A stretch of 64,000 nucleotides of DNA from NCBI GenBank assembly GCA_964586255.1, contig CAZPGE010000004.1, positions 32,693-96,692 of the forward strand. Direction: 5' to 3'. The notes beneath the pieces are model-generated. The model ran no database searches and was not told the origin of the DNA. It saw only the letters and a list, made by a program, of their open reading frames with translations. This document shows, one piece after another, positions 28,871 through 52,440 of the stretch (the first letter of the stretch is position 1; every line of letters begins with the position of its first letter). The position numbers and the translations under genes are program-made. This stretch comes from an uncultured Candidatus Saccharibacteria bacterium. GTDB taxonomy: Bacteria; Patescibacteriota; Minisyncoccia; Phycocordibacterales; UBA2100.

Positions 28871-29635
28871 CTAGAGGACGATAAAGAAGAATGCCGCTGC
28901 CGCGAGGATACGGTAGATGCCAAACGGTATAAACGTGTGGTTGCGGACGAAGTGCAAGAGAAACTTGATTGAGAGGAGCGCGACGACAAATGAGACGATA
29001 AATCCTATGGCGAGCGCGCCCAGGTGCTCTGACGTAAACGCCGGAAGATTCTTCACAAGATCAAGACCTGTTGCCGCAGCCATGGTGGGTACGGCAAGCA
29101 AAAAAGAAAATTCCACAATTGTGCGTCGGGGGATACCTATCATCAGTCCGCCGAGTATCGTGGCAGCAGAGCGGGATACACCGGGGACAATCGCTATCGA
29201 TTGAAAGAGTCCCACGATAAATGACTGTGTGTACGAAATATGCGAGACCGGAAGCTCCTCCGGCGTCTCGCGGTAGAGCAGCTCAAATACGATGAGCACG
29301 ATGCCCCCTAGAAAAAGAGAAGAGAGGACGATGAGTGGGCTATCGAGCAGGTACGATTTGAGAAAAGGATATGCGGCAAGGCCGATGATGCCCGTCGGTA
29401 TAAAACCAACGACGAGTTTCTTGAGAATTTCAATATCGAGAAGAAGTCGCCAGTAAAGCGCGACGACGGAGAGGATGGCGCCAAACTGAATAGATATTTC
29501 AAATGACTTGAGAAAGTCTGAAGAGGGGATGCCGAGGAGTTCGCTCGCGAGGATAAGGTGACCTGTCGATGAGATAGGAAGAAATTCCGTGACCCCCTCT
29601 ATGATGCCGAGCAGTGCCGCCTGAAGTAAGTCCAT
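28871..29635 (-). CDS. uppP: undecaprenyl-diphosphate phosphatase
   Basis: 'GVTEFLPISSTGHLIL' and 'AAMVGTASK...RRGIPI' are BacA/UppP motifs. Confidence 0.85.
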   Translation of the reverse strand: MDLLQAALLGIIEGVTEFLPISSTGHLILASELLGIPSSDFLKSFEISIQFGAILSVVALYWRLLLDIEILKKLVVGFIPTGIIGLAAYPFLKSYLLDSPLIVLSSLFLGGIVLIVFELLYRETPEELPVSHISYTQSFIVGLFQSIAIVPGVSRSAATILGGLMIGIPRRTIVEFSFLLAVPTMAAATGLDLVKNLPAFTSEHLGALAIGFIVSFVVALLSIKFLLHFVRNHTFIPFGIYRILAAAAFFFIVL

Positions 29636-29691
29636 ACGTGGGTTGCATTATATATGAAGCTCCAGGGCTCTTGTGTTATATTTCGCCCTAA

Positions 29692-29764
29692 CCGCCCGTA
29701 GCTCAGTCGGTAGAGCACCTGCCTTTTAAGCAGAGGGTCGTTGGTTCGATTCCAACCGGGCGGA
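29692..29764 (+). tRNA. tRNA-Lys (anticodon TTT)
   Basis: Cloverleaf: acceptor CCGCCCG/CGGGCGG, D-arm GCTC/GAGC, anticodon loop CTTTTAA, T-arm GTTGG-TTCGATT-CCAAC, discriminator A. No encoded CCA. Confidence 0.85.
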
Positions 29765-29902
29765 CTGAAACGAAGTGTAAGAACGCCCGGTTGCGAAGGG
29801 GGTCGGGGAAACAGCTGTTTCCCCGTGGAGGAAGGCAGCCGCGCAGCGGCGTTGGAAAACCGTGGGTTTCCAAGGCAACTGGGGCGGACATGACGTCACA
29901 AA

Positions 29903-29923
29903 CAGTGCCTGCGCACTGTTTTT
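29903..29923. terminator. intrinsic terminator-like hairpin (CAGTGC-ctgc-GCACTG then TTTTT), nested in a larger inverted repeat
   Basis: Stem-loop plus T-tract, preceded by an A-rich run. Lies within the structured GC-rich region 3' of tRNA-Lys. Confidence 0.45.
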
Positions 29924-30063
29924 GCATTCATGTCCGGGCCGGAGCGTTGTCGCACAAGCTTGTGCGACCGCGAGGCGGGGGCTGCGACCGAGGCGAGTGA
30001 CGACGAGTCGAGAGTCGTGGCCGACTGGCTCGTCTGAATCATCGGACGAAGTCGCGTAACTCT

Positions 30064-30306
30064 CTACTCGCCCTTCTCTTCTAGAATCTCGGCAGCCTTA
30101 AGGGCACTGTCCTGCAGGTCTGCAATTTTGGCATCAGCGAGGCGTGCTGTTACCGCATCGGAAAAAGAAGCAAGCAGCATCTCGCTCTGCGTATCTTCCG
30201 GTAGTTCGGAAAAGTGTTCGAGCATAAAATCCTTGAGCGCAGATTCGTCGCCGGCGTCCAAAAGGCGATCTATCTCGGCGCGAAGTTGTTCTTGATTTAG
30301 GGCCAT
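30064..30306 (-). CDS. hypothetical small acidic protein (80 aa)
   Basis: Overlaps the upstream gene end by 10 nt (operon-like). Helical, acidic. Confidence 0.45.
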   Translation of the reverse strand: MALNQEQLRAEIDRLLDAGDESALKDFMLEHFSELPEDTQSEMLLASFSDAVTARLADAKIADLQDSALKAAEILEEKGE

Positions 30307-31487
30307 AGTGATGCAGCGTGAGTTTTAATGTCTGGTTTTGATTTGAGGAATAGATTGAGAAGCGCCGTAAAGATGCCTTTACCAACCTTTTTCTTTTGAA
30401 GAGTTACTTCAGAATCTACAAATGAGTCGATGAATGCGCTCTTCTCTGCGGGGGAGTACGCCGACAGGCTCTTCTTCTTGAGTCGTTTACTCTCCGCTTT
30501 CAGCGCTTCACCAAAGCGCTTCTTCACTGCCCCCTCCTCAAACTCTTCTCGTGCTGCTCGGAGGTCTTGGATGGTGTTGACGTTGGTTTCAGGCATGTCC
30601 TTCATCTTCCCGCCCTCTATCATGACGCGCTGCATCTCGAGCCGCATTTCAGGGGTGATAGAGGCCTTGAGGACCTTTGCGATATCAGCTAAGTGAAGGT
30701 TGCTCTTTTGGAGTAGATCGCGCTGGTGTTGAAATGACTCGACAAGAGTGCGGGCGCGTCGATGAGAAATAGCGCTCCCGCTGACGATGTCGGCGACTCT
30801 CATCATAATGTTCATGCTTTCTCGCGCGGTACGTTCAATCATCGACTTCTCACCTGAGTCGAATCCGCTCGAAAGGCCCAGACTCTTTGTGACGTACCGC
30901 GCGAGCTCACTTTCTGGGATTCCCGTCTTTTCTAAAGCGGCAGAGACTTTCGTATTCACGCTCCGTGCCCAACCGCCCTCGCTGAGGGTACGCTCTTCCG
31001 ACATCGACTTAACAAGTTTTGAGTATGCCTTTGCATCTTCTCGCGAGAGTGTATCGAGTCGGCTCTTGAGAAAATCGTGGGCCCTTTCAAGTCCAATCTG
31101 TTTGACCATGAGGCCAACACTCTTGTCCGTATCGGCAATGTCGCGGACGTAGTCCGGTGTAAAAATCTGCTCGAGCCGGCCCATCTCGGCACTGCGTATG
31201 TTGTAACCTTTGACCGACTCATCGACGTAGGTCTGCTGGCTTTCTGTCAAAAGACGCTTGTTTTCAAGAGCATCAATGATTGGCTTTGCCTTGCGGCTGT
31301 CTTTCGCTCCGAGAAACTGCAGAAACTTGGCCTGCTCCTCAGGATCCTGCCAGATATCCTCCTGCGACTTTGCGTGTTCGCCGAGCTCCATCTGCTCGCC
31401 GGAAAGAGGGTCTTTGACAGCAGCTTTCTCAGCCTTTTCCTCGATACTTCTCCGTACTTTGCGGAGTTCTATTCCCATACGCAGCAT
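30297..31487 (-). CDS. hypothetical alpha-helical protein (396 aa)
   Basis: Long ORF with no recognisable motif. Confidence 0.5.
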   Translation of the reverse strand: MLRMGIELRKVRRSIEEKAEKAAVKDPLSGEQMELGEHAKSQEDIWQDPEEQAKFLQFLGAKDSRKAKPIIDALENKRLLTESQQTYVDESVKGYNIRSAEMGRLEQIFTPDYVRDIADTDKSVGLMVKQIGLERAHDFLKSRLDTLSREDAKAYSKLVKSMSEERTLSEGGWARSVNTKVSAALEKTGIPESELARYVTKSLGLSSGFDSGEKSMIERTARESMNIMMRVADIVSGSAISHRRARTLVESFQHQRDLLQKSNLHLADIAKVLKASITPEMRLEMQRVMIEGGKMKDMPETNVNTIQDLRAAREEFEEGAVKKRFGEALKAESKRLKKKSLSAYSPAEKSAFIDSFVDSEVTLQKKKVGKGIFTALLNLFLKSKPDIKTHAASLWP

Positions 31488-35680: not shown

Positions 35681-35719
35681 CAGATATGAGCGCAGCGAAA
35701 TAGTTGTGCTCGCAGAGAA

Positions 35720-38197
35720 GTGCGGGAGATTCCTGCAAAAAAGCAAAGAAAGAGGTTCTTTTCCCCACGCGTTTCATTGCGTCGCCTCGGCGCAGGGCGC
35801 ATCATGGTGGACATGAGGAAGCGCTTTACGAGTCGCGGTTATTCTATTCTTGCCGCGCTCGTATTCGTCGCGCTCTTGGGGAGCATCACGGTCGCCGTAA
35901 ATTTCGCCACTCCATCAGTCAATCGGATGGCGATGTCAGCACTTGCTCCCGCGACGGGCAACGTACCTACGAGTGCGCCTGCAAGCACGGGAAAGGAGAG
36001 CGGACAGAAACAGCAATGCCAACCCGGATACGATTATGTAGTGAACAAAGATTCGAAAGGAAAACCCCAGGTTGCTGCGCAGCCAGTCTGTCCGCCTCCG
36101 GGCGAAGCTCCCAAGGGTCCCGAACAGATAAAGAGCACTCAGCAGGGTGCGGCGGCGCTCGCCCTCGCGCCAGGCACATTCGGGGAGCGCAACGACCCGG
36201 TGCGATGCGAGCTTGATGCCAAGACCAAGCAGTACAAACCTAAGAGCGACTATAAGTGCAAGGTCAAATACTGCATACCGGTTGGCGGCAACAAAAGTGA
36301 GTGTAAAGAAGTAGATAATTTGTTTGGAGCGAATAGCAGTATCGATCCTTCGGCCGTAGAGAAAGAATTGAGAGAGCCTTTGATCAAAGATATTTTAAAG
36401 AATACCGACCCATCTGAGCATCAAAAACTTCTGGGCGAAATGGGGGTATCTTCAGCGGATCAAGACATATTGAAAAAAGCATATGAGGAAGACAAGACGG
36501 AGACAAAGGCTGAGATTGCACGGAATAACAACAGATTGTCCGAAATAGAACAGGCGCTTTCAAATTGCGCATACGGTGGATGTGATGAAGGGCGCAATGC
36601 GCGAGATGCAAAGTTGCTAGAGGCCGAAAAAGCGGCGCTCGACGCAAGAAATGAGTCACTGCAGAAGCGTCTCAGTGTTCTCTCAGCTGCTGAACAACAG
36701 CATCTTAAGCCCGGCGTAGTGCCTGGCACCGACCAACCGGGCGTTGCGCAGGTCTGCAGCACGGCAGGTGGATGTGTAGGGCCAGATGGCAGACCGGTGC
36801 CCAAAAACACTTTCCGTGATCCGGGACCTGCTGCGCCGCAGGGACCCGCGGGGCCTGATTCGCCAGCACCGAGAAGTGGAGGTAATCCGATGGGATCTCT
36901 TGGCTCGCTCTTGCAAGGGCTCTTGAAGGGATTGAGCGGCTCAGGTGCGGGACAGGGTGCTCCATGCGCGTCTGATCCAAACGCGTATCAGCAACAACAG
37001 CAGCAGTATCAGATGCAGATGCAGCAGTACAACTACCAGCTGCAGCAATATAATTACCAACAGCAACAAGCGGCCACGTTTGGCGGCCCGCAGCCCCTTG
37101 CCCCTGTGCCTCCAGCGGCATGCACGCCGAACGCGGATTCAAATACATGTCCTGCCGCTCCTGTGCAGCCGAAGACGGGATGCGCCAATGGCTCATGGAA
37201 GCCCGTGACTACACAGGGGTCAAATGGACGCCAGTGCACTACAAACTGGCAGTGCACGCCAAGCAACGCGGTCACGCCGACCGCGGAACTCTCATGCCAG
37301 CCAAAGGTCGCCGATGTGGGAATGTCAGTGGCCATATCTTTTTCATGCGCCAACGCGACAGGAAGCTCGGGTGCTGGCGGGGGATTCTCCACCGACAATC
37401 AAACATCGGGTTCGACGACGACCGTGATAGCGACCCCGCCGACGGGTGCTACGGGCATCACGTACGCGCTCACATGCCGCAACGAGAATCTGACTGCTCG
37501 CGCTGAATGTAGTGTGCAGATATCAAAACCGACCATCGTGTTACTTGCCAATCCGAAGAATGTTGTCTCTGGGGAGTCCTCGAGAGTCGGATGGGTGACC
37601 AGTGGCATGCAGTCGTGCGTCGTATCGAGCCCTCAGATGCCGGGTTTCACTACGCAAAACGCGAGCAATAAAAACGTAAATGGTGTCGCAACAACCTCGC
37701 CACTCACACGCAATACCACGGTGGTACTGACATGCCAGACTATCGGGGGTAGCACAAAAGCGGCTTCGACCACAATAGTGGTGGGCAACAGCACATCGAC
37801 ATCGGTCATGACGGTCTCGTCGACTATTGATGGTCGGACGGATGTAAAACATGGCGCCTCTACGACGATTTCATGGCAGACACCTTCGGCACCGTCCAAC
37901 TCTGCGGTCGCGCTCTGGCTCGTCGATTCTCAGAGTGGTCAGGCGACAGGACTCATCCACCGCTCGGCAAACACGTCGGGCTCGTACGTGTGGGCGATTC
38001 CGGCCACGAGCTCACCATGCGCAGTCGATTCTCCTGCAGTTTGTGGTGCGGATCTCGTCGTTGGTCGCACGTATTCGATACAGGCGTCGCTTTTCACACC
38101 TCCCAATGCGTATCTTGGCGGACTTCCGCCAGCAGACCCTATAACACCGACGTACCTCGACGAAGCATCTACGGCGAACTTCAAGGTGAGTAACTAG
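35720..38197 (+). CDS. large Cys-rich, Q/N-rich cell-surface protein with repeated Ig-like modules (N-terminal membrane anchor)
   Basis: GTG start per the ORF track; an alternative ATG is at about 35804. Poly-Q/N tract QQQQQYQMQMQQYNYQLQQYNYQQQQ. Repeated modules 'V.W.SxG..SCxV.SP...........LTC.T.GG' are shared with the 27122 protein. Confidence 0.5.
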   Translation: MREIPAKKQRKRFFSPRVSLRRLGAGRIMVDMRKRFTSRGYSILAALVFVALLGSITVAVNFATPSVNRMAMSALAPATGNVPTSAPASTGKESGQKQQCQPGYDYVVNKDSKGKPQVAAQPVCPPPGEAPKGPEQIKSTQQGAAALALAPGTFGERNDPVRCELDAKTKQYKPKSDYKCKVKYCIPVGGNKSECKEVDNLFGANSSIDPSAVEKELREPLIKDILKNTDPSEHQKLLGEMGVSSADQDILKKAYEEDKTETKAEIARNNNRLSEIEQALSNCAYGGCDEGRNARDAKLLEAEKAALDARNESLQKRLSVLSAAEQQHLKPGVVPGTDQPGVAQVCSTAGGCVGPDGRPVPKNTFRDPGPAAPQGPAGPDSPAPRSGGNPMGSLGSLLQGLLKGLSGSGAGQGAPCASDPNAYQQQQQQYQMQMQQYNYQLQQYNYQQQQAATFGGPQPLAPVPPAACTPNADSNTCPAAPVQPKTGCANGSWKPVTTQGSNGRQCTTNWQCTPSNAVTPTAELSCQPKVADVGMSVAISFSCANATGSSGAGGGFSTDNQTSGSTTTVIATPPTGATGITYALTCRNENLTARAECSVQISKPTIVLLANPKNVVSGESSRVGWVTSGMQSCVVSSPQMPGFTTQNASNKNVNGVATTSPLTRNTTVVLTCQTIGGSTKAASTTIVVGNSTSTSVMTVSSTIDGRTDVKHGASTTISWQTPSAPSNSAVALWLVDSQSGQATGLIHRSANTSGSYVWAIPATSSPCAVDSPAVCGADLVVGRTYSIQASLFTPPNAYLGGLPPADPITPTYLDEASTANFKVSN

Positions 38198-38896: not shown

Positions 38897-39139
38897 ATGT
38901 ATTACGCATATAGTCTAAGATGCAAAGATGGTTTCTATGTTGGCTGTACTGATGATATTCAAGAGCGATTAGAGCGTCACCAAAAGGGGCAGGTCCCTGC
39001 AACCGTAGATCGTCTGCCTGTCGCGCTTGAGTTCTACTTTGCCATTGAAGATAAGTACAAAGCTTTTGAGTTTGAGAAATATCTTAAGTCGGGTTCAGGT
39101 CGAGCATTTATCAACAAACATTTTGTTAAGATGAGCTAA
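38897..39139 (+). CDS. GIY-YIG nuclease-superfamily small protein (UPF0213-like), AT-rich
   Basis: 'MYYAYSLRCKDGFYVGCTDDIQERLERHQKG' shows the GIY...YIG motif. About 42% GC against about 57% for the flanks. Immediately 3' of tRNA-Ser. Confidence 0.65.
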   Translation: MYYAYSLRCKDGFYVGCTDDIQERLERHQKGQVPATVDRLPVALEFYFAIEDKYKAFEFEKYLKSGSGRAFINKHFVKMS

Positions 39140-45858: not shown

Positions 45859-46012
45859 TTTCAGCGGGAGACTCGGTCACGCGTTAGCCTGAAGACTCGA
45901 CCAAGAGCTCGTTTGGTCGCCGTCGCGACCAAACTCCTCTCGGCCCTGTTCGCGCCGTCCCATCTGCTGATGGGTCCCGCGTCGCTCACTTTCTCGTCTC
46001 CCCCCGCTGAAA

Positions 46013-46049
46013 ACAGCACGACGCCGGAGACATGCTCCGGCGTCGGCTG
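46013..46049. terminator. bidirectional intrinsic terminator (GACGCCGGAG-acatg-CTCCGGCGTC then GGCTGTTTT)
   Basis: 10-bp stem. T-tracts on both strands. Separates the kinase-like gene from tRNA-Leu. Confidence 0.55.
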
Positions 46050-46055
46050 TTTTAG

Positions 46056-46140
46056 TGCGCGGGGGGAGACTCGAACTCCCATGCCCTTAACGGGCGCTAC
46101 CACCTCAAGGTAGTACGTCTACCAATTTCGCCACCCGCGC
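46056..46140 (-). tRNA. tRNA-Leu (anticodon GAG), type II
   Basis: Minus strand: acceptor GCGCGGG/CCCGCGC, D-loop AAATTGGTAGA, anticodon loop TTGAGGT, long variable arm, T-arm GGGAG-TTCGAGT-CTCCC. Confidence 0.85.
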
Positions 46141-48868: not shown

Positions 48869-48941
48869 GGCGACTGTGGTGTAACGGTTAACACTGGAGC
48901 TTGTGGAGCTCTCGATCAGGGTTCGATTCCCTGCAGCCGCC
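48869..48941 (+). tRNA. tRNA-His (anticodon GTG) with encoded G-1
   Basis: G-1 plus acceptor GCGACTG/CAGCCGC (one A-C mismatch), D-loop AACGGTTA, anticodon loop TTGTGGA, T-arm CAGGG-TTCGATT-CCCTG, discriminator C. Confidence 0.8.
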
Positions 48942-49128
48942 CAAAAAATAACAAAGCAGATGCGAAGCATTTGCGAGTTCTATTTTTCGGAGTGGCTGCA
49001 GGGAATCGAACGGCGGAGCGTGGTGAGGCCAGCAGGCCGAACCGCGAGCCGGTGCCCAACCCGAGTCGCGCGACGGTGCGACGAGAGGTGAGGGAGATTC
49101 CCGCTTAGGTAGCTCATGAACGGGTCTT

Positions 49129-49614
49129 TTGCGCGGGTATAATACCCCCATCTCTATGAAAAAAGGTGAAGATTTCATCGGCATCACGGTTTCTTTCCTT
49201 TGTCATGATGGTAAGGGCAATGTGCTCCTCTCAAAGCGAGGCGAAAACGCTCGCGATGAACATGGGCGCTGGGACTGCGGAGGAGGGGGCGTAGAGTTTG
49301 GCGATACGGTTGAGGCTACGTTGCGGAAGGAGATTCAGGAAGAATATTGTACAGACGTGCTCGATGCGGAGTTCCTGGGGTTTCGTGATGTATTCCGAGA
49401 AAAAGACGGACGCAAGACTCACTGGGTGTCGCTTGATTACCTCGTGCTCGTCGACGCGGAGATGTGGGGTAATGGAGAGCCGCACAAGCTCGAAGAAGTA
49501 AAGTGGTTCCCTTTTGCTGCATTGCCCGAGCCGATGCATTCACAATGGCCGATGTTTCTCGAACAGTATGCGCCAAAGCTGATACAATTGAAAAATGGAA
49601 CAAGAGCTCAGTGA
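49129..49614 (+). CDS. NUDIX hydrolase
   Basis: Nudix box 'GGGVEFGDTVEATLRKEIQEE'. A TATAAT-like -10 lies upstream. Confidence 0.75.
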   Translation: MRGYNTPISMKKGEDFIGITVSFLCHDGKGNVLLSKRGENARDEHGRWDCGGGGVEFGDTVEATLRKEIQEEYCTDVLDAEFLGFRDVFREKDGRKTHWVSLDYLVLVDAEMWGNGEPHKLEEVKWFPFAALPEPMHSQWPMFLEQYAPKLIQLKNGTRAQ

Positions 49615-51885: not shown

Positions 51886-52311
51886 ATGGCAAAAGAAGTC
51901 ACAAAAATAATTAAGCTCCAGATTGAAGCAGGTAAAGCGACTCCGGCTCCTCCGGTCGGTACGGCTCTTGGTCCCGCGGGCGTCAACATCGGTGAATTCG
52001 TCAACCAGTTCAACACCCTGACGCGTCCGCTCATGGGTTCGACGCTCCCTGTCGTCCTCTCAGTGTACAAGGACCGTACCTTTAGCTTCATCGTGCGAAA
52101 GCCGCCAGCGTCTCGCGCCATCCTTAAGATGCTTGGTCTCGAGAAGGGTTCTCAGCGCCCACACACGGACAAGGTGGGGAAGCTTACGAACGCGCAGCTC
52201 GAGCAGCTCGCCAACGACAAGATGGAAGATCTCAATGCGACTGATATCGAACAGGCGAAGAAGATTATCGCCGGGACTGCCCGATCAATGGGGATTGACG
52301 TGCAAAAGTAA
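51886..52311 (+). CDS. rplK: 50S ribosomal protein L11
   Basis: '[27 protein letters not shown]' matches L11. Start at the internal ATG (51886). Confidence 0.9.
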
Positions 52312-52412
52312 CGTCAATCGACCTTTCGAGATATTTTTGAGCGAATGCGAAAAAAATATCCGAAAGGTGTACTGTTCCTGTAAGGAATCGACACTCAGAA
52401 ATAGAAAGAAAA

Positions 52413-52440
52413 GCCCCGGACAGACCGGGGCCTTTCTTTT
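52413..52440 (+). terminator. intrinsic terminator after rplK (GCCCCGG-acaga-CCGGGGC then CTTTCTTTT)
   Basis: Hairpin plus T-tract preceded by an A-run. No rplA follows. Confidence 0.5.

Follow-up and report, generated by a model that had tools for sequence, protein, structure and literature searches.

A probable mosaic spacer of terminator, accessory hairpin and recombination scar downstream of tRNA-Lys in a Patescibacteria genome

Bidirectional intrinsic terminators are known from the space between converging genes, repetitive extragenic palindromic (REP) sequences are defined by their many dispersed copies, and some tRNA transcripts yield 3' external-transcribed-spacer (3'ETS) RNAs, for example 3'ETS-leuZ in Escherichia coli. 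Clusters of hairpins can act, or have been proposed to act, as termination units (PMC8355165), and integration at tRNA genes is expected to leave incomplete copies of the tRNA beside the inserted DNA (PMC9897764, with reference to Williams 2002, PMC100330, and Reiter 1989, PMC317532). We describe here a GC-rich noncoding block of 298 nucleotides (nt), at positions 29766-30063, which begins directly 3' of the tRNA-Lys(UUU) gene in a stretch of 64,000 nt of DNA (hereafter the window) belonging to a 178.8-kb metagenome contig; the host genome is Patescibacteria, Paceibacteria-like. We propose that this block is a mosaic spacer between two converging units, tRNA-Lys on the plus strand and an operon for proteins of 396 and 80 aa on the minus strand, and that it consists of four modules, a reading to which we give a probability of about 0.6. 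From the tRNA outwards these are module A (29766-29889), a 124-nt insertion, module T (29886-29935), a long nested hairpin, module B (29949-29968), a shorter hairpin, and modules C/D (29969-30063), a poorly conserved and hairpin-prone spacer.

Modules T and B fit the class of intrinsic terminators and hairpin-cluster spacers. In T, which is located between converging units, a GC-rich stem follows an A-tract and precedes a putative U-tract, and the hairpins of B and C/D are found within a few tens of nt, with stems that change in a compensatory manner. Unlike ordinary intrinsic terminators, T is unusually long, at about 20 bp, with its base made by the last 5 nt of the tRNA, and B has no U-tract and keeps to the far side of T from the tRNA, the inverted cassette included. 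Module A fits the class of scars in tRNA flanks, except that it comes with no integrase. Similarly to the attL/attR duplications of tRNA genes, it adjoins the 3' end of an intact tRNA, has a direct repeat of the tRNA end at its borders and is matched by an empty site in relatives. However, the examples described in PMC9897764 are kilobase-sized islands, whereas module A measures 124 nt and holds no integrase or cargo; its repeat is only 13/14 nt, and the insert also contains an inverted copy of the tRNA end. As with RNAs of the 3'ETS-leuZ type, a structured segment lies between tRNA and terminator and is predicted to be released by tRNA 3' processing, but module A is dispensable among close relatives.

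Distribution of the modules among relatives

The preliminary description of this DNA presented the block as a single structured element. Comparison of the tRNA-Lys 3' flank across relatives resolved it instead into a mosaic, in which four modules with differing histories vary independently. The lineage-specific 396-aa and 80-aa proteins, together with UppP homologues of 80-97% identity, led to related loci, and an exact scan of JGI metagenomes for the 3' half of tRNA-Lys supplied further ones; seven informative related Patescibacteria lineages were compared with the window. The window species is represented by the window's own contig (L001) and by a locus from another sample (L086). L087 is ~87-90% identical to the window at the nt level in the region of the 396-aa gene, and L089-L092, L102 and L099 form one species at 84-87% nt identity. 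L088 and L085 stand at 79% and 52% aa identity, L097, L098 and L101 carry a UppP of 80% identity, L084 and L095 are one metagenome-assembled genome (MAG), with a different neighbour at the locus in L084, and L100 is a more distant lineage.

In the alignments, module T directly follows the tRNA in L099, L097 and L087. Module A is found at 96% identity in L089-L092 and L102 and is absent from L087, L097, L099, L100 and L085, a conspecific of a carrier being among those that lack it: within this one species, the L099 allele reads tRNA followed by T+B+C, and the L089 and L102 alleles read tRNA followed by A and a short C. In L085 the tRNA abuts the stop codon of the ORF (open reading frame), with no spacer at all. 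The distribution of the modules over these alleles is a mosaic.

The individual elements listed in the preliminary description were all recovered. The first palindrome, GGGGAAACAGCTGTTTCCCC (29805-29824), has a full perfect extent of 22 bp, CGGGGAAACAGCTGTTTCCCCG (29804-29825), and the second, GTCGCACAAGCTTGTGCGAC, was found by an exhaustive palindrome scan as a perfect 20 bp at 29949-29968. The imperfect hairpin GGAAAACC-GTG-GGTTTCC occupies 29854-29871 (GGAAAACC from 29854, GGTTTCC from 29865), and the hairpin CAGTGC-CTGC-GCACTG with its TTTTT (29903-29923) is enclosed by the inverted repeat GGACATGA (29886-29893) and TCATGTCC (29928-29935). The absence of a plausible coding sequence was borne out as well, the sole ORFs being of 48-74 aa and either overlapping the tRNA or broken in frame by indels in relatives (L087 and L089). 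The GC content is 0.59-0.64, against ~0.45-0.55 in the flanks. It is scarcely credible that the palindromes are chance products of a GC-rich spacer. Their occurrence only here, in a variable flank, is what chance would predict, but the window holds two perfect palindromes of at least 20 bp, both in this block, against 0.07 expected from block shuffles. Moreover, the 298 nt fold at -142.8 kcal/mol on the plus strand (z -5.2 against shuffles) and at -126.4 kcal/mol on the minus strand (z -5.5), and the pairing of T and B is kept through compensatory change, as detailed below. Both palindromes are palindromic at the DNA level only because the 4-nt loop of their hairpins (AGCU) is self-complementary.

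Searches for known RNA families returned the tRNA alone, both with the covariance models of Rfam 15, where the whole window was scanned at the gathering score and 29600-30200 at E up to 10, and with ARAGORN, which reported nothing but tRNA-Lys when run with introns, with thresholds lowered to 80% and in transfer-messenger RNA (tmRNA) mode. A resemblance of GGAGGAAGGCAGCC to the motif GGAAGCAGCC of signal recognition particle (SRP) RNA was dropped, as there was no SRP match in Rfam and no matching hairpin could be drawn. A TIGR-like or tandem array was likewise rejected, with no repeated unit and only two 8-nt direct repeats found.

Probable terminator hairpin T and accessory hairpin B

Module T is most likely the ancestral terminator of tRNA-Lys, as its fold and covariation suggest, and is likely to be bidirectional. 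The inverted repeat given above forms its outer stem; the inner stem consists of AAACAGTGC (29900-29908) and GCACTGTTT (29913-29921) around the loop CTGC and is followed by TT. The inner helix CAGUGC-CUGC-GCACUG reaches 9 bp inside a longer one, in keeping with the stems of about 5-14 bp and loops of 3-8 nt of intrinsic terminators. In L099, L097 and L087 the tRNA's final 5 nt, CGGAC, make up the base of the longer helix and pair with a downstream GUCCG to give one long hairpin (z -4.5 to -7.4). In the window, the left arm is supplied by a displaced copy of the tRNA end. On the plus strand, UUUUU follows a stem of 6-9 bp and is partly able to pair with an upstream AAA.

The pairing was assessed by counting covariation in nine inner pairs of T and eight pairs of B over three independent lineages, namely the window, L097 and L087. 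All 51 cells (17 pairs in three lineages) are standard pairs, and changes on both sides affect 10 of the 17 pairs. These measures were reached by none of 500 shuffles, and pairing fell to 33-52% in a control in which the partner was slid by 1-3 columns. The inner stem of T passes from CAGUGC to CGGCGC to CCUGCC with the loop CUGC kept, four of its nine pairs being changed on both sides and all still paired, and the outer stem changes in L087 from AUGA/UCAU to UAAG/CUUA. Module B is identical in L099, and the same position reads GTCCCGCAAGCTTGCGGGAC in L087 and GTTTTGTCAGCGGACAAAAC in L097; across lineages its half-stems are GUCGCACA/UGUGCGAC, GUCCCGCA/UGCGGGAC and GUUUUGUC/GACAAAAC, so that six of eight pairs have changed on both sides while 100% still pair. 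The loops (CUGC in T, AGCU or AGCG in B) are more conserved than the stems. In these three lineages, covariation shows T and B to behave as hairpins under selection, and the nested terminator of the preliminary description would accordingly be a conserved one. As all pairs of T and B are Watson-Crick, they do not decide which strand is transcribed; the only hint is a G-U pair on the tRNA-sense strand of the terminator stem in L100.

Module B, a perfect palindrome of 20 bp, corresponds to an 8-bp hairpin with an AGCU loop. Its position distal to T, relative to the tRNA, is kept even where the cassette is inverted (L097, see below). It is followed by a conserved motif, CGCGAGGCGGGGGCTGCG (29969-29986), which relatives share after B as CGCGAG(G/T)CGGGG or a variant. 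The preliminary description had suggested that palindromes of this kind may be operators of dimeric regulators or recombination sites, and a nicking site could be added to these. That they are DNA sites read by a protein is, in our view, very improbable. They are indeed perfect over 22 bp and 20 bp and both centred on AGCT, and the conservation of the loops CTGC (T) and AGC(T/G) (B) above varying stems could suit a structure-specific protein, e.g. a hairpin-binding nuclease. However, the half-site of B is not conserved at orthologous loci, palindrome 1 lies within a dispensable insertion, the location is between converging gene ends and not at a promoter, and the neighbours include no adjacent regulator or recombinase gene or domain. 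Since the stem sequence of B has been replaced while its pairing was kept, a dimeric regulator that reads the sequence is unlikely, and the changes point to selection on the hairpin rather than on a protein-read sequence.

The remaining C/D region, characterised by predicted folds and a patchy alignment, is also the 3' untranslated region of the converging operon. It retains ~92% identity to L099 in the first 40 nt and is unrelated beyond; with L087, L088, L089 and L097 it has only patches in common, among them the recurring GGCGAG..TGACGAC (29992-30004), and indels are many. We propose that T, a hairpin of ~20 bp with an A-tract before and a U-tract after it, would stop the tRNA transcript and, less efficiently, that of the opposing operon. 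B, kept by compensatory change, most likely works together with T as a cluster of hairpins, serving either to block read-through or to protect the 3' ends of RNA. The hairpins of C/D would join the cluster around T, this region being otherwise fast-evolving filler.

Module A and the probable exchange of the cassette

The last 13 nt of tRNA-Lys, CAACCGGGCGGAC (29753-29765), constitute the left copy of a direct repeat, whose right copy, CAACTGGGGCGGAC (29876-29889), is an imperfect version of the tRNA end; exact copies of GGGCGGAC are thus spaced 124 nt apart. In L099 the tRNA ends in GGGCGGAC and continues directly with ATGACGTCA, whereas in the window 124 nt stand between GGGCGGAC and ATGACGTCA. 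Read further, GGGCGGAC leads in L099 into ATGACGTCAAAAACAGTGCC (T+B+C, no A) and in the window, past the 124 nt, into ATGACGTCACAAACAGTGCC. The repeat at this spacing and the empty site of L099 define module A as an indel placed precisely at the 3' end of the tRNA and flanked by a duplicated tRNA terminus. L099 is otherwise near-identical to the carrier L089: identity is 98.3% across the 1445 nt of UppP, promoter and tRNA, and 100% across 109 nt in the small ORF. The earlier suggestion that the position after a tRNA is an integration hotspot is well served by this indel, with its duplicated tRNA 3' end and empty site. Within module A there are, from left to right, an inverted perfect copy of the tRNA end, CGCCCGGTTG (29784-29793), the 22-bp palindrome (29804-29825), the hairpin GCCGC-GCA-GCGGC (29838-29850) and the hairpin TTGGAAAACC-GTG-GGTTTCCAA (29852-29873). 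By analogy with known tRNA-flank scars, we infer that module A is a recombination scar, left for instance by integration and internal deletion or by partial duplication. Its insertion, right at the 3' end of the tRNA, would have duplicated the terminus and pushed the old tRNA end and T 124 nt downstream. Lying between the tRNA and T, it would be expected to form a structured 3' trailer of the transcript, removed at the 3' processing of the CCA-less tRNA.

The history of the cassette departs from that of the genes around it. Between the window and the L089 species, 112 of 280 fourfold-degenerate sites differ (40%), compared with 5 of 124 positions in module A (P ~6e-21 under neutral vertical descent). 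Similarly, T+B+C and its counterpart in L099 show differences at 8 of 136 positions. In the 396-aa gene L087 is the nearer relative of the window (14% fourfold divergence), yet its T+B+C has an identity of only 66%. Such incongruence indicates that the noncoding cassette departs from the genome tree and is exchanged between lineages; the simplest reading of the alignments is that it has been exchanged by recombination and then trimmed by deletions. The exchange would be anchored by the identical tRNA at one end and the small ORF at the other, and the tract imported in L099 takes in the last ~18 codons of the small ORF. In L097/L101 (Ga0163150_10000605) the promoter, tRNA, T, a B-like hairpin and C are inverted as a unit relative to the flanking small ORF and UppP, and in L100 the tRNA is likewise oriented towards UppP.

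It can alternatively be hypothesised that module A, possibly with T, is a functional structured small RNA derived from the tRNA-Lys 3' trailer, similarly to the 3'ETS RNAs of E. coli. In the predicted structure, an acceptor-like outer helix (CGCCCGGUUG / CAAC-N-GGGGCG, then GAC) could let the tRNA 3'-processing enzymes release an RNA of ~124 nt. Module A is predicted to fold stably (-53.8 kcal/mol, z -3.2). The minimum-energy fold of the window sequence is a three-way junction (-53.1 kcal/mol), and a cloverleaf-like four-way junction closed by a 10-bp helix is the minimum-energy structure of the L089 sequence (-51.1) and reaches -48.8 in the window. Such a function would be in keeping with the low divergence of module A given above, with its position between tRNA and terminator, where co-transcription is expected, and with substitutions that fit the outer helix, a change of U to C turning G-U into G-C and a bulged base varying. 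However, at least five related lineages lack module A, a conspecific among them, and it is hence dispensable; the identity of T+B+C to L099 is equally high and, with the incongruence of L087, shows that recent exchange can explain the conservation without function. Because the cassette is exchanged, the high identity of module A alone is no proof of function. Only three sequence variants are available for any covariation, and the Rfam search at E up to 10 and the relaxed ARAGORN search found no RNA family, tRNA-like or tmRNA gene in it. We consider a functional small RNA unlikely, if worth keeping in view.

A further proposition treats module A as a small mobile element, non-autonomous and directed to the 3' end of tRNA-Lys, whose integrase or transposase would come from a gene elsewhere and act in trans. 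The precise empty site with its 13/14-nt target duplication, the patchy distribution, the near-identity of the copies in two species whose neutral sites differ by 40%, and the two subterminal hairpins would all suit such an element. Nevertheless, it occurs at the orthologous site only: each palindrome is single-copy in the 64-kb window, the part of the genome searched, with up to 3 mismatches allowed, and neither module A nor the palindromes have a copy elsewhere in ~100 related loci or in viral contigs, phage or plasmid records. The tRNA-Lys 3' end, as a candidate phage attP, was not found in viral contigs. The pattern is moreover explained by homologous recombination through the identical tRNA, together with deletion between the repeats, and we regard a mobile element of this kind as improbable. 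The same searches lend no support to the REP-like repeat put forward in the preliminary description: the palindromes resemble REPs and palindrome-associated miniature elements as short, GC-rich, palindromic intergenic hairpins, but differ in having no dispersed copies in the window and the fetched loci.

Several observations weigh against the mosaic spacer that we favour. For module A, no integrase or recombinase was found, its 124 nt being without an ORF and its neighbours being UppP and conserved hypotheticals, and neither terminal inverted repeats nor a second copy were detected; these absences, and neighbours that are conserved core genes, count against the mobile element as well. Outside the terminal repeat it shows no significant resemblance to tRNA-Lys (z 0.69), and a decayed tandem copy of tRNA-Lys was rejected on the same local alignment, whose z of 2.4 depends on including that repeat. 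The 96% identity of module A, set against 40% neutral divergence, could also reflect purifying selection, and thus function, instead of recent exchange. For module T, the U-tract on the minus strand is weak (UUUGU only), a consensus terminator scan did not flag the hairpin at 29900-29923, and the L089-type allele has neither T nor an obvious replacement terminator, which makes T dispensable. The covariation comes from three independent lineages only, with hairpin segments picked by position (supported by the alignment), and both termination at T and transcription of A are inferred from sequence.

Neighbouring genes, other tRNA flanks and wider meaning

The neighbours in the window are of candidate phyla radiation (CPR) type. 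The tRNA-Lys(UUU) gene (29692-29765, plus strand) was called by ARAGORN and matched the Rfam tRNA family at 72.2 bits; CCA is not encoded, and its sequence is identical in relatives down to 52% protein identity. A putative extended -10 element, TGTTATATT (29674-29682, plus strand), was read upstream of it, and GTGTTATA(T/G)T recurs at an equal distance from the tRNA in L089, L097/L101 and L100, even with the cassette inverted; a consensus promoter scan gave no -35/-10 pair for tRNA-Lys. UppP/BacA lies upstream on the opposite strand. The UppP of the window is closest to proteins of Patescibacteria/Paceibacteria MAGs, with at most 71% identity among GTDB species representatives, and none of 60 loci scanned in GTDB representative genomes had tRNA-Lys next to UppP. 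On the other side, the 80-aa ORF (30064-30306, minus strand), the last gene of the operon, runs towards tRNA-Lys and marks where the block ends on the right. It is conserved and called as a gene in related loci, without a Pfam or PHROG match. The 396-aa/80-aa pair (30064-31487, minus strand) has no Pfam match either, and its 8 and 3 homologous clusters among 5.8 billion sequences all come from one narrow group of Paceibacteria; evolution at the protein level is apparently fast, with 85% aa identity at only 14% fourfold-site divergence.

Many independent assemblies (Logan and NCBI MAGs) end near the locus (L002, L083, L085-L088, L093-L096 and L098), whether inside tRNA-Lys, a few tens of nt past it, in the spacer or in the adjoining small ORF. 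These breaks may reflect allele heterogeneity, or a tRNA common to co-occurring species, that interrupts the assembly graphs.

Other tRNA genes of the window have structured 3' flanks too. Downstream of tRNA-His (48870-48942), the flank 48943-49130 contains an 18-nt perfect inverted copy of the tRNA 3' end, GGCTGCAGGGAATCGAAC (~48994-49011), ~52 nt after the tRNA. This copy encloses a stretch running from an A-run to a T-run, with a GC- and purine-rich stretch next, and of all 120-nt segments in the 64 kb the most strongly structured lies here. The flank of tRNA-Leu(GAG) (tRNA at 46055-46140, minus strand; flank 45859-46054) has a near-perfect terminator-like hairpin with an A-tract and a U-tract directly after the tRNA. 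An inverted copy of 12 nt from the 3' end of tRNA-Leu, GCGGGGGGAGAC, encloses this hairpin, in the nested architecture of module T. Three of the seven tRNAs in the window (Lys, Leu, His) are thus followed by the complement of their own 3' end, which for Lys and Leu encloses a terminator-like hairpin and for tRNA-Lys has its pairing kept by compensatory change. Between a tRNA and its own flank, inverted matches measure 10 nt (Lys), 12 nt (Leu) and 18 nt (His), compared with 4-8 nt for most non-cognate pairs; the exceptions arise from a T-arm motif in the His flank, which gives 10-12 nt with three other tRNAs. The three flanks have no sequence similarity to one another in the window and do not form a flank family. 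The flanks of tRNA-Arg(GCG) and tRNA-His have a common motif, G(C/A)GGGAGATTCC(T/C)GC (35715-35733 and 49083-49101), resembling the 3' side of a T-arm, and the Arg flank further contains a direct copy, 9 nt long, of the T-arm of its tRNA, GATTCCTGC; these motifs may be displaced tRNA fragments. Two further features of the window were recorded: a stand-alone ORF of 80 aa with a GIY-YIG nuclease domain (Pfam PF01541, E 9.4e-11) at 38897-39139 on the plus strand, 70 nt after tRNA-Ser(UGA), and the second most structured stretch (52300-52440), past a gene end, where a long imperfect hairpin, GACCTTTCGAGATATTTTT...AAAAATATCCGAAAGGT, is followed by a classic terminator, AAAAGCCCCGG-ACAGA-CCGGGGCCTTTCTTTT.

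A bolder proposition joins these strands. Module A would be a cloverleaf-like RNA element that entered the tRNA-Lys 3' end through duplication of the terminus, has been passed between Patescibacteria species and is released by tRNA-processing enzymes, its outer helix mimicking an acceptor/T-arm minihelix, and the downstream 3'-end complements of the Lys, Leu and His tRNAs would be a functional feature of tRNA units in this lineage. We hold this to be speculative and quite unlikely.

The block is real, non-random and evolutionarily dynamic, and its components are of known kinds and mostly ordinary. An apparently single structured block resolves into a probable terminator, an accessory hairpin and a probable recombination scar once a few relatives are compared, and perfect palindromy can arise as a by-product of hairpins with self-complementary loops. 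The tRNA-Lys cassette appears as a recombination hotspot, with alleles within a species, exchange between species and an inversion in one lineage, which may help to explain the assembly breaks at or near tRNA-Lys. What retains interest is module A, as an inert scar or a released structured RNA, and the recurring pairing between tRNA 3' ends and their trailers. If general, the complement of a tRNA's own 3' end would be an undescribed feature of the tRNA transcription units of CPR bacteria.

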